Of a stretch of 64,000 nt of DNA, positions 33,519-62,486 are shown in pieces; the first letter of the stretch is position 1, and each line of letters starts with the position of its first letter. Below the pieces are notes generated by a model. The model saw nothing but the letters and a program-made list of their open reading frames with translations. It was not told the DNA's origin and made no database searches. The stretch spans positions 112,185-176,184 of the forward strand of contig JAFQTN010000002.1 of NCBI GenBank assembly GCA_017409025.1, given 5' to 3'. This stretch comes from Bacilli bacterium (GTDB lineage: Bacteria > Bacillota_I > Bacilli_A > RF39 > UBA660). Both the position numbers and the translations under genes were made by a program.

Positions 33519-34397
33519 TTAATCAAATTTTATATTCATTATTTCTAATATTCTATCTAAATCATTATTGTTATTAAAACTAATTTCTATCTTCTTATTT
33601 CCTACTTTTACTTTAGTACCAAATACTTCTTTTAATTCTCTTTCTATATAAGAATATTCGTTTTCTCTACTAACTCTGTTAATAGGATTTTTCTTCTTTA
33701 TATCATTATCCTTAGACATGCTTTCAATATCTCTAACAGATAAATTATTATTAACTATTTCTTTAGCATACTCAACTATCTTATCATTATCTTCTAACTT
33801 ACTAAGTTCTCTAGCATGGCCCATTGATAATTTACCATCTAATATCATATTCTGTACTGAATTAGGAAGTCTAAGTAAACCTAATGTATTAGTAACACTA
33901 CTTCTACTTTTACCTAATTTATTAGCTAACTCATCTTGTGTAATATGTAAACTATCAATAATTCCTTTATATGCCCAAGCAAGTTCTATCGCCGTTAAAT
34001 TTTCTCTTTGCAAGTTTTCAAGTAATGCAATTTCTCTCATCATTTCATCAGAAAAATCTTTAACAATCGCAGGAATAGTTTCAAGACCAGCCAGTCTAGA
34101 TGCTTTAACTCTTCTTTCTCCGGCTACTAAATCATAACCCTTAATACTTTTCTTAACAATTATTGGTTGGAATACTCCATATGATTTAATTGATTCAGCT
34201 AATTCTTCCAACGCTTCTTGATTAAACGTCTTTCTTGGCTGATATGGATTAGATCTAATTTCAGATAAATTGATTTGCTTAATATCATCTACTGAAGCAG
34301 ATTCTAATATATTAGACTCAAATGAATTAAAATCTAATACCTCAGTATCAAATAATTGTTCAAGTCCTCTACCCAACGCTCTCTTCTTTTGTTCCAT
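33519..34397 (-). CDS. parB: Chromosome partitioning protein ParB/Spo0J
   Basis: GRGLEQLF box, PNPYQPR, GERRVKASRLAG (CTPase/arginine patch), HTH GKSRSSVTNTLGLLRL. Confidence 0.95.
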   Translation of the reverse strand: MEQKKRALGRGLEQLFDTEVLDFNSFESNILESASVDDIKQINLSEIRSNPYQPRKTFNQEALEELAESIKSYGVFQPIIVKKSIKGYDLVAGERRVKASRLAGLETIPAIVKDFSDEMMREIALLENLQRENLTAIELAWAYKGIIDSLHITQDELANKLGKSRSSVTNTLGLLRLPNSVQNMILDGKLSMGHARELSKLEDNDKIVEYAKEIVNNNLSVRDIESMSKDNDIKKKNPINRVSRENEYSYIERELKEVFGTKVKVGNKKIEISFNNNNDLDRILEIMNIKFD

Positions 34398-35184
34398 TTC
34401 TCTCTATTACCTCCTTAGCTAAATTAAGATAAGCTCTAGTTCCCTTTCCTTTAGGATCATAATCAAGTATTGTCTTTCCATGACTTGGAGCCTCAGCTAA
34501 CTTAATTAATCTTGGTATAATGGTATCATATACTCTTTCTTTAAAAAATTCTTTTATACTACTAATAACTTCTAAACCCAAATTAGTATTAACACTAAGC
34601 ATAGTAAGAAGTACTCCTTCGATATCTAAATTAGGATTAACTTTTCTTTGAGCCAACATAATAGTATTTATAAGTTGCATAATTCCTTCTAACGCATAAT
34701 ATTCACATTGTACTGGTATTAAAACTGAATTAGCAGCAGCTAATGCATTCGTAGTTAATATACCTAAAGAAGGAGGACAATCTATCAATATAAAATCATA
34801 ATTATCTCTAACTTTACTAAGTTCATCTTTAAGTCTCATAACCCTATTAAATTTCTTATCAGTATCTTTATATTGTTTTTCTAATTCAATAAGTTCCATA
34901 TCAACACCAGCTAAATTTAAATAAGCGGGAATTATACTTAAATTCATACTTTTAGTCTTAATAATAGCATTCTCTATAGGCATCTTCATAGTCATAACCT
35001 CATAAATACTACCATCTATTCCTCTTTTATCTACTCCAACACCAGTAGTAGCATTACCTTGAGGATCTAAATCCACTACTAATACTTTTTTATTTAACAT
35101 CCCTAAAGCTGCAGCAAGATTAATACTCGTAGTAGTCTTTCCTACTCCACCTTTTTGATTAACAATAGCTATTATTTTACCCAC
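34369..35184 (-). CDS. parA: Chromosome partitioning ATPase ParA/Soj
   Basis: Deviant Walker A NQKGGVGKTTT. 29-nt overlap with the parB start. Confidence 0.95.
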   Translation of the reverse strand: MGKIIAIVNQKGGVGKTTTSINLAAALGMLNKKVLVVDLDPQGNATTGVGVDKRGIDGSIYEVMTMKMPIENAIIKTKSMNLSIIPAYLNLAGVDMELIELEKQYKDTDKKFNRVMRLKDELSKVRDNYDFILIDCPPSLGILTTNALAAANSVLIPVQCEYYALEGIMQLINTIMLAQRKVNPNLDIEGVLLTMLSVNTNLGLEVISSIKEFFKERVYDTIIPRLIKLAEAPSHGKTILDYDPKGKGTRAYLNLAKEVIERNGTKEESVG

Positions 35185-60817: not shown

Positions 60818-60933
60818 TAACCACCACTTACATTTATATTATATCAACAATTACATTATTTTTAAAGAAAAAAACATCACAAAAGCATTATCAAATTATT
60901 AATTCCACTTTTTATAAATTACAAGTTAATTTT

Positions 60934-60947
60934 ATTTCCCAGGAAAT
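60934..60947. promoter_or_regulatory. NBS-like palindrome ATTTCCCAGGAAAT (13/14 to the Noc-binding-site consensus ATTTCCCGGGAAAT)
   Basis: Read directly. Embedded in the longer symmetric ttatttcc-ca-ggaaataa. Confidence 0.45.
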
Positions 60948-60989
60948 AATTTAATAAAAAGATAACTGATTTATACATATATATAAAAG

Positions 60990-61048
60990 GGAAATAATCT
61001 GATTTTTACAGTCTGTGCATATTTCTATTACAGATTTTTAATTTCTGT
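60990..61048. repeat. Left arm of inverted repeat bracketing the parS array
   Basis: 59 nt, 57/59 identical to the reverse complement of 62008..62066. Weaker symmetry continues inward to the first and last parS (about 105-115 bp in total). Confidence 0.9.
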
Positions 61049-61074
61049 TAATTTTTATATACATTTTTTTAACA

Positions 61075-61975
61075 TCAATGTTCCACGTGGAACATTGACT
61101 TATAAAACTAATTATCACACTTTTATACTAGTTTTATTTAGATATTTTTATATTAACCATTTATATAAAAATTACACATTAAACTCATAGCTATTTCAAT
61201 GTTCCACGTGGAACATTGAAATGCATAACGAAACATATCACCAAATTTTATTATATTAAATATTGTATATTTTTTATATAGTTACTCTGCTCGTTTATAA
61301 ATTAAAACAAACTCTTATGAATGTTCCACGTGGAACATTCATAAAATCAAGCAACATACGTATTTAAATAATAAATAACGCTGCACAATTGTTACTCATC
61401 AAAACAACATAAATTTATTTGCAATATTCCACATGAAATATTACATTTTTTTATATAATAATTTTTTATACTAAATATAATTGTTACAAAAAAGTCTAGT
61501 ATATTTAACAACTAGAATCTAATAACCACACATCATATATTTTTTATGTTCCACGTGGAACATAAAAAAAGTGCACACAGTAATTAATAGTTAAAGCTGC
61601 TATCTTCCGATCCTGACTTGATTCCTATATTACTGTTGCACAAACAAATTATATAATAATATTAAATTTATTTCAAGTATTTTATTATAAAATACAATAT
61701 ATCTACAATGTTCCACGTGGAACATTGTACTATATAACAAATCACTACATTATTCCACATTGATTATATAATAATATTATTTAATTCAAATCATTTATTA
61801 AAAACATGAATTTTAAATTTACACCTATTCTAATGTTCCACGTGGAACATTAGAATATCACAAAACATTAATCTACAAATTTTATTATATAAAAATATAT
61901 ATTATTATTTTGTAACATATATAATTAACTATAAAAAACAAAGATATACAATTATCAATGTTCCACGTGGAACAT
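61075..61975. repeat. Array of seven identical parS-type palindromes TGTTCCACGTGGAACA within a degenerate ~122-125-bp tandem repeat
   Basis: Cores at 61079, 61200, 61322, 61547, 61709, 61834 and 61959 (16 nt each). Degenerate copy TATTCCACATGAAATA at 61425..61440. Spacers share motifs such as attatataataatatta. Confidence 0.9.
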
Positions 61976-62007
61976 CGTTATAGTTAAAAAAATGTAGTCA
62001 AAAAATT

Positions 62008-62066
62008 ACAGAAATTAAAAATCTGTAATAGAAATATGCACAGACCGTAAAAATTAGATTATTTCC
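62008..62066. repeat. Right arm of inverted repeat bracketing the parS array
   Basis: Reverse complement matches 60990..61048 at 57/59 positions. Confidence 0.9.
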
Positions 62067-62110
62067 TATTTCTACACATACAAAAGAACGAAGATATTTC
62101 TTATAACTTT

Positions 62111-62124
62111 ATTTTCCAGGAAAT
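62111..62124. promoter_or_regulatory. NBS-like palindrome ATTTTCCAGGAAAT (12/14 to NBS consensus) inside 10-bp perfect arms aactttattt/aaataaagtt
   Basis: Read directly at 62105..62130. Confidence 0.35.
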
Positions 62125-62203
62125 AAAGTTAACTTATAGCTAACAATAAACAAAATATTAAGGTATTTATATCGACAGATAAAAAACTGTAATAGATTTT
62201 GTG

Positions 62204-62261
62204 CAGAAATTAAAAATCTGTAACATAGTTATACAGTCACTGCAAAATTCAGATTATTTTC
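62204..62261. repeat. Third, diverged copy of the bracket repeat (same orientation as 62008..62066)
   Basis: cagaaattaaaaatctgtaa...agattattttc aligns with 62009..62066 at roughly three quarters identity. A partial extra copy precedes it at 62176..62203. Confidence 0.6.
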
Positions 62262-62325
62262 TATATCATAATAACAATATTGCTATATCAACAACCAATT
62301 TTATTATTATTACTCTATCCAAATT

Positions 62326-62339
62326 ATTTCCTGGGAAAT
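62326..62339. promoter_or_regulatory. NBS-like palindrome ATTTCCTGGGAAAT (reverse complement of the 60934 site) within the 11-2-11 palindrome aaattatttcc-tg-ggaaataattt
   Basis: Read directly at 62321..62344. Confidence 0.45.
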
Positions 62340-62486
62340 AATTTGGATTTGCTTTAATTTTGTTCTATCAACAGGAAACACAAAAAATATATAAAAATTA
62401 ATAATATTAACTAAATAATTATAACTTAATAAAAAGATTAATTTATAAAATTAAAAATGCTATATCAACAGGTTCTAGAAAAATGT

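Follow-up and report, generated by a model that had tools for sequence, protein, structure and literature searches.

Chromosomal parS sites of Firmicutes conform to the 16-bp consensus TGTTNCACGTGNAACA (PMC7383237). The array described here resembles the parS/ParB (Spo0J) systems of Firmicutes in that its core is a perfect match, soj and spo0J are present in the genome, the sites lie next to gyrA and there are several copies. It departs from them in two respects. All copies are gathered in a single intergenic array of 0.9 kb, and the conserved site spans about 20 to 22 bp, with six of the seven copies carrying copy-specific arms that bring the palindrome to 24 to 32 bp. The binding site (NBS, TATTTCCCGGGAAATA) of the ParB paralogue Noc is a palindrome of 16 bp as well, to which a clamp of the ParB family binds. 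In contrast to parS, the NBS half-site consensus reaches position 12, so that much of its apparent extension is consensus, and its excess over the null amounts to about 5-fold as compared to 20- to 50-fold.

Two further systems are close in mechanism rather than in sequence. In E. coli, template switching at quasipalindromes is stimulated by protein-DNA crosslinks, as followed with quasipalindrome reporters in thyA and lacZ (PMC7202029). There, an imperfect inverted repeat becomes perfect by copying of one arm, and DNA-bound obstacles promote the reaction, which is the likeness to the process proposed for our array. However, the E. coli events were observed, whereas ours are deduced from what evolution has left at a natural binding site of a protein, and an internal mismatch is corrected in E. 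coli, while the arms considered here would grow outward from a selected core. Template switching also expands inverted repeats at sites of dimeric transcription factors in yeast (PMC13100816) and maintains hairpin and RNA stems (PMC8794818). In both cases a palindrome grows or stays paired by templated multi-base changes, as proposed for the array, and the arms are lineage-specific, as they are here. The present case differs in concerning a bacterial centromere with many parallel instances, both within one locus and across a bacterial class, and in being read from end-products.

The parS array and its surroundings

The window (the whole stretch of 64,000 nucleotides that was analyzed) belongs to the assembly of a gut bacterium, 1.28 Mb in 37 contigs with 27% GC, and displays a strong C>G skew. 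The array occupies most of a gene-free gap of 1.65 kb between gyrA, which adjoins it (62500 to past 64000, minus strand), and tadA-dnaX-ybaB-recR. Seven zero-mismatch copies of the 18-mer ATGTTCCACGTGGAACAT begin at positions 61078, 61199, 61321, 61546, 61708, 61833 and 61958, providing seven exact TGTTCCACGTGGAACA sites where 0.02 would be expected by chance. No further parS with up to two mismatches was found anywhere in the 1.28-Mb assembly, which leaves the array as its sole parS location. The seven sites make up the only parS array of the chromosome and are presumed to be where ParB/Spo0J loads.

All copies except the last are embedded in longer perfect palindromes. Copy 1 forms a palindrome of 24 bp (61075..61098; outer arms tca/tga), copy 2 one of 30 bp (61193..61222; atttca/tgaaat) and copy 3 another of 30 bp (61315..61344; ttatga/tcataa); the calculated DNA hairpin energies of these three are -8.9, -13.0 and -11.1 kcal/mol, respectively. 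Copy 4 (61540..61569) also measures 30 bp, with the arms tttttt/aaaaaa. The 26-bp palindrome of copy 5 (61704..61729; taca/tgta) is the first site upstream of the promoter of the SRP RNA gene, and copy 6 (61826..61857; tattcta/tagaata) with its 32 bp is the joint longest perfect palindrome of the assembly. Copy 7 is the bare 18-mer (61958..61975) with zero extension and adjoins the right arm of an inverted repeat that brackets the array. From copy 1 to copy 7, the pairs beyond the 18-mer number 3, 6, 6, 6, 4, 7 and 0, in sum 32. Calculated for single strands, the hairpin energy of the bare 18-mer is -4.5 kcal/mol and that of the extended copies lies between -8.9 and -13 kcal/mol. An initial annotation of this DNA had described the same cores and palindromes, and all seven 18-mers and every boundary turned out to be exact.

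As judged from its sequence and its place in the repeat family, ATATTCCACATGAAATAT at 61424..61441 is a decayed eighth parS unit. It differs from the core by only four GC-to-AT transitions and lacks symmetric arms. The interval that separates copy 3 from copy 4 is of double length (225 bp), and this unit splits it into 103 and 122 bp.

A gene for the small SRP RNA (ffs) is located within the array on the minus strand (61565..61645; Rfam RF00169, 57.3 bits, E 1.7e-11). It is preceded by the promoter-like sequence TTGAAA-17-TATAAT at 61676-61648 on the same strand, which scored 11/12 in a promoter scan. The right arm of copy 4 (AAAAAA on the plus strand) coincides with the 3' U-tract of this RNA. 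The ffs gene was present in every array of the genus that was examined.

The presumed reader of the parS cores is a ParB/Spo0J protein of 292 amino acids encoded 27 kb from the array (33519..34397, minus strand), in which the domain PF02195 was recognized with 121.9 bits at 34008-34286. An open reading frame of 271 amino acids resembling soj/parA lies directly upstream of parB (34369-35184). The soj-spo0J pair has moved off rsmG-noc and now adjoins secE-nusG-rplK. A Noc-like ParB paralogue of 444 amino acids follows rsmG on contig C30 (L111 457-1791); its C-terminal tail of about 230 residues is of low complexity and rich in proline and valine. The dnaA gene is located near the end of the same contig, and the array would lie about 10 kb from dnaA only if contigs C30 and C1 abut.

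An inverted repeat encloses the entire array; its left arm of 97 nt at 60977..61073 is 88% complementary to the right arm at 61983..62079. A third, diverged copy of this element is found at 62177-62267, and all copies adjoin an NBS-like site. The NBS-like element ATTTCCTGGGAAAT (62317..62348) has site-specific arms of 15 bp (ATCCAAATTATTTCC-TG-GGAAATAATTTGGAT), and related sites are located at 60932-60952 and 62109-62129. These three sites flanking the array share the pattern ATTTCC-CA/TG-GGAAAT. The only consensus NBS of the assembly is at position 50059 of contig C30, about 700 bp upstream of dnaA.

Symmetry beyond the core exceeds chance

Since the tract consists of 79% A+T, the observed symmetry was compared with three nulls, namely shuffling of the flanks, virtual cores and pairing of flanks between copies. 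With shuffled flanks, the summed extension averaged 3.3 and reached at most 20 in 100,000 trials, as compared to the observed 32. At 1,037 virtual core positions in the same AT-rich non-coding tract, the match per position was 0.33 and an extension of at least 6 pairs had a probability of 0.005. The binomial probability that at least four of seven sites reach 6 pairs is accordingly about 8e-11. When the left flank of one copy was paired with the right flank of another, at most three positions matched, and these derived from the common tca/tga. The proposal that the extended symmetry is unlikely to be accidental was thereby borne out by a permutation test, and the outer arms do differ between copies. 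Each of the three nulls rejects chance as an explanation.

A part of the symmetry belongs to the recognized site itself. Position ±10 (A:T) is close to consensus, and tca/tga is common to copies 1 and 2 and partly to copies 5 and 7. About one to three pairs per site are therefore consensus rather than independent symmetry, and the remainder is copy-specific. The half-site composition points in the same direction, as A occupies position ±9 in 88 of 90 half-sites, position ±10 is mostly A and position ±11 is C or T. Beyond ±11 there was no preferred base and no GC enrichment in the arms, only the A/T background. By its sequence, the conserved ParB site of this lineage appears to span about 20 to 22 bp, with outer arms that have no preferred sequence.

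The ends of the palindromes are abrupt. Over the six positions that follow the first mismatch, matches occurred at a frequency of 0.336 as compared to 0.371 in the null. The flanks are thus exact reverse complements, contiguous with the existing palindrome and bounded by a sharp outer edge, and interrupted palindromes are rare among the surveyed sites of the genus.

Long palindromes are not a general property of this genome. It contains 19 zero-spacer perfect palindromes with arms of at least 11 bp, and six of the 19 are parS copies. Palindromes with arms of 7-10 bp were not more frequent than under a first-order Markov model, by which lengthening of palindromes throughout the genome was rejected. 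GC-richer palindromes of this genome run longer, a weak trend in small numbers. In the family, 14% of NBS had at least 7 pairs beyond the 14-mer against 2.6% in the null. The presence of this excess, weaker than that of parS, suggests that the effect follows strong palindromes rather than one protein. The family NBS has a 24-bp consensus (AAATTATTTCCCGGGAAATAATTT), often lies tens of bases from parS and forms tandem arrays in two of the genomes (G061 and G017). As a control outside the ParB family, CIRCE (TTAGCACTC-N9-GAGTGCTAA) yielded six sites in 151 genomes, which were too few for comparison.

Extended sites in related genomes

Arrays from eight other species of the genus and from four further species recovered from metagenomes were surveyed, counting a site as extended if it had at least 5 pairs beyond the 16-mer and using re-paired flanks as null. 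Within the genus, 51% of 37 sites with perfect cores were extended, as compared to 29% of 34 sites with imperfect cores, the null being 3.6% for both. Roughly one in two sites with a perfect core consequently lacked an extension in the genus. Among 45 sites from other genera of the family, 44% were extended (null 2%), and among 71 from other families of the class, 17% (null 1.1%; P = 3e-11). At the level of the phylum, a search with a perfectly symmetric 16-mer gave sites in only 7 of 301 genomes and was repeated using TGTTYCACGTGRAACA.

The arms vary by site and by species, and the longest total palindromes measure 42 bp. Sites that look genic were unextended (G076b-d, G364, G319 and the G408/G029a group). 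Extended arms of differing sequence were seen when orthologous arrays from the eight other congeneric species and from many further genera were compared. Together with the permutation tests, the differing arms of the relatives support the view of the initial annotation that symmetry itself is kept and not the sequence of the arms. Descent of the arms from a common ancestor was rejected with the aid of the re-pairing nulls. In one case the arms are conserved; AAAAGAA-core-TTCTTTT occurs at three sites in two families of the class (G350:C23:16631, G474:C60:124 and G480:C113:26755). At a site of another species of the genus (G010, L021 3684-3699) the symmetry of the core is lost (TGTTTCACATGGAACA), yet the outer arms of 11 bp are perfect.

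One species of the genus (G002) has a near-identical tandem parS array with a unit of 106 bp and only 1-4 extra pairs, which looks like a recently amplified centromere. The array is split across two contig ends (L027 5483-5818 and L019 136-575). Two related units of it differ at ±10 on both sides, one reading CAA..TTG and the other CTA..TAG.

Searches for proteins identical to TadA and YbaB led back to the same genome (100% over 2.3 kb) or to contigs ending before the array, and to nothing else. A metagenome scan with TadA gave other species alone, at no more than 75% identity, and no near-identical strain with a variant array.

The SRP RNA segment is the only part of the array that can be aligned between species, and it anchors the two flanking parS sites. 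The site abutting the U-tract of ffs reads TTTTTTA-core-TAAAAAA in the genome studied here, TTTTTTAA-core-TTAAAAAA in G003 and TTTTTATA-core-TATAAAAA in G013. Differences between these three genomes at ±10 and ±11 fall on both sides together. One arm of this site is constrained by the terminator U-tract, and the unconstrained arm mirrors it. The first site upstream of the ffs promoter carries the arms TACAA/TTGTA in the genome studied here, TTATTCAA/TTGAATAA in G006, TATGAA/TTCATA in G008 and TTATAA/TTATAA in G013, and it is unextended in G003, G010, G012 and M34. At these first sites flanking the SRP RNA gene the arms are species-specific, and roughly one site in two has a perfectly paired extension. 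The comparison at the promoter site indicates that the arms turn over about as fast as the nearby AT-rich DNA, with perfect pairing wherever they are present. Two-sided concerted changes were found at both sites flanking ffs as well as in the G002 units. Arms that are replaced quickly and yet stay perfectly paired bear the mark of concerted, conversion-like evolution and not of slow two-step compensation.

Origin and meaning of the arms

Our main reading, to which we assign a probability of roughly 55%, is that the arms are products of template switching or hairpin-templated copying that is nucleated at a core selected by ParB, one flank being overwritten and symmetry being restored after mutation. 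We infer both the copying itself and the part that ParB would play in it as an obstacle to replication. Selection for ParB binding would keep the core of 16-20 bp (AATGTTCCACGTGGAACATT) constant. Within DNA of 27% GC this core would be by far the strongest hairpin-former and would carry a tight protein complex. At the passage of the replication machinery, the nascent strand may now and then fold back on the core, copy a few bases of its own opposite flank and then rejoin the template, with the result that one flank is replaced by the reverse complement of the other. The same copying would re-perfect an arm that has suffered a mutation, the change being either reverted or copied across. Arms would thus drift between copies and species, stay exactly complementary and keep sharp outer edges. 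This process is termed intramolecular template switching or quasipalindrome snap-back synthesis; hairpin-templated repair, or self-conversion of the site in inverted register, might lead to the same outcome.

Several observations would be explained by template switching at the core. Sharp edges are the expectation if copying starts from a paired stem and runs contiguously. Template switching also accounts for the copy-specific arms, for their fast turnover with maintained pairing and for the mirroring of the U-tract, as well as for the nearly armless new array of G002 and the weaker echo at the NBS. Under this reading the copy-specific outer arms are most likely read by nothing. Since AT-rich palindromes of this genome with arms of 7-8 bp are not lengthened, the process would, as we assume, have to depend on hairpin strength or protein occupancy. 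Against template switching stand the roughly one-half of perfect-core sites that are unextended and the presence of Exonuclease VII, which suppresses quasipalindrome template-switch events in E. coli. This enzyme was found in 25 of 25 genomes checked, and loss of the 3' exonuclease was therefore rejected as the cause. SbcD was found above the TIGR00619 cut-off in none of the 16 genomes of the family (G000-G015) nor in the sole other genome of the same order (G025), and it was present in three of eight other families of the class. In favor of template switching, the palindrome-limiting hairpin nuclease thus appears to be missing from the sampled genomes of the family and order.

The main rival is a selected structure, in which dyad symmetry is kept because the sites would be required to form extruded hairpins or cruciforms. 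Possible purposes are the absorption of supercoils in the neighborhood of gyrA and oriC, the blocking or timing of ParB or SMC movement and the marking of newly replicated DNA. In favor of such a structure, extended copies form more stable hairpins (-9 to -13 kcal/mol) than the 18-mer alone (-4.5 kcal/mol), total lengths become 24-32 bp amid very AT-rich flanks, and pairing stays across species while the sequence changes. Perfect cores are also more often extended than imperfect ones (51% versus 29%), and interrupted palindromes are few, a rarity that fits purifying selection on pairing equally well as copying. However, the hairpin of a palindromic parS contains a half-site only, so that a ParB dimer would not bind to it. 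About half of the sites are armless, including copy 7 and the whole young array of G002, and the arms show no enrichment of GC. The quick turnover of the arms is moreover not predicted by classical compensatory evolution under selection, and full-text searches gave no paper tying parS to cruciforms. We therefore consider a selected structure doubtful, although it is the alternative to be taken most seriously.

Slightly less credit is given to a related version, in which symmetry beyond the core is selected in the loading sites of the ParB family (parS and, more weakly, NBS) and template switching merely supplies the variation. Arms selected in this way could possibly gate the loading of ParB clamps once the fork has passed, form topological or translocation barriers in the neighborhood of gyrA and oriC or time the assembly of the centromere.

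Among the mechanisms offered by the initial annotation, the hairpin-templated one fits best. A cruciform or hairpin function is conceivable but doubtful, and a dimeric protein contacting the flanks non-specifically fails to explain the exact complements. In a related version, this lineage's ParB dimer or a partner protein would touch DNA past the 16-20 bp and favor symmetric flanks. Conservation of ±9, ±10 and ±11 past the classical 16-mer, with a recognized site of about 20-22 bp, agrees with such a contact. However, each monomer reads its own half-site, so that a flank preference would drive one consensus everywhere and would not produce copy-specific, exactly complementary arms. There is no base preference past ±11, and the consensus is already covered by the re-paired-flank nulls. 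An extended contact is accordingly improbable as the origin of the arms.

We regard as very unlikely a role at the RNA level, with the palindromes acting as intrinsic terminators or protective RNA hairpins of transcripts that cross the array. Copy 4 directly follows the U-tract of ffs, a lenient scan gave four terminator-like hairpins, and arms with A-runs and T-runs resemble bidirectional terminators elsewhere (for example in G109, G474 and G500). Nevertheless, T-rich tails were not enriched in the genus (extended sites 17%, non-extended sites 14%, background 13%), the extended copies of this genome lack a T-rich tail on both strands, and copy 4 has its T-run before the stem and its A-run after it. 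The sites were consequently not assigned to the class of intrinsic terminators, defined by a stem followed by a U-rich tract.

Hardly any weight remains for relics of rearrangement, either inversions between palindromic tandem cores that produced longer palindromes, now decayed to remnants, or a mobile palindromic element, since in spite of cores that are both direct and inverted repeats of one another, a 97-nt inverted repeat around the entire array and tandem duplication giving rise to young arrays as in G002, no residual complementarity exists past the first mismatch (0.336 versus 0.371 in the null), and left flanks sharing no more than three bases between copies cannot yield unique arms of 6-7 bp by inversion. 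The sharp-edge test rejects inversion and a decayed long palindrome alike, and a REP- or MITE-like element should have identical arms, whereas the arms differ in every copy.

Full-text literature searches gave no paper that joins parS with extended palindromes. Neither the sites, which are ordinary parS, nor the proposed mechanism is new; the systematic, site-specific and concertedly evolving symmetry of a centromere site seems to be undescribed. parS is among the best-studied bacterial DNA sites and has been treated as a 16-bp element. Across a class of low-GC bacteria, intergenic parS sites often lie in perfect palindromes of 24-42 bp, whose arms can vary, though not asymmetrically. If the origin of the arms is mutational, template switching at a palindrome occupied by protein would have left a natural record in these arrays. 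A binding site could then reshape the DNA around it, and a long perfect palindrome would not have to mean that the footprint is large or that a hairpin has a function. If the arms are selected, centromere function would have a DNA-structure component.
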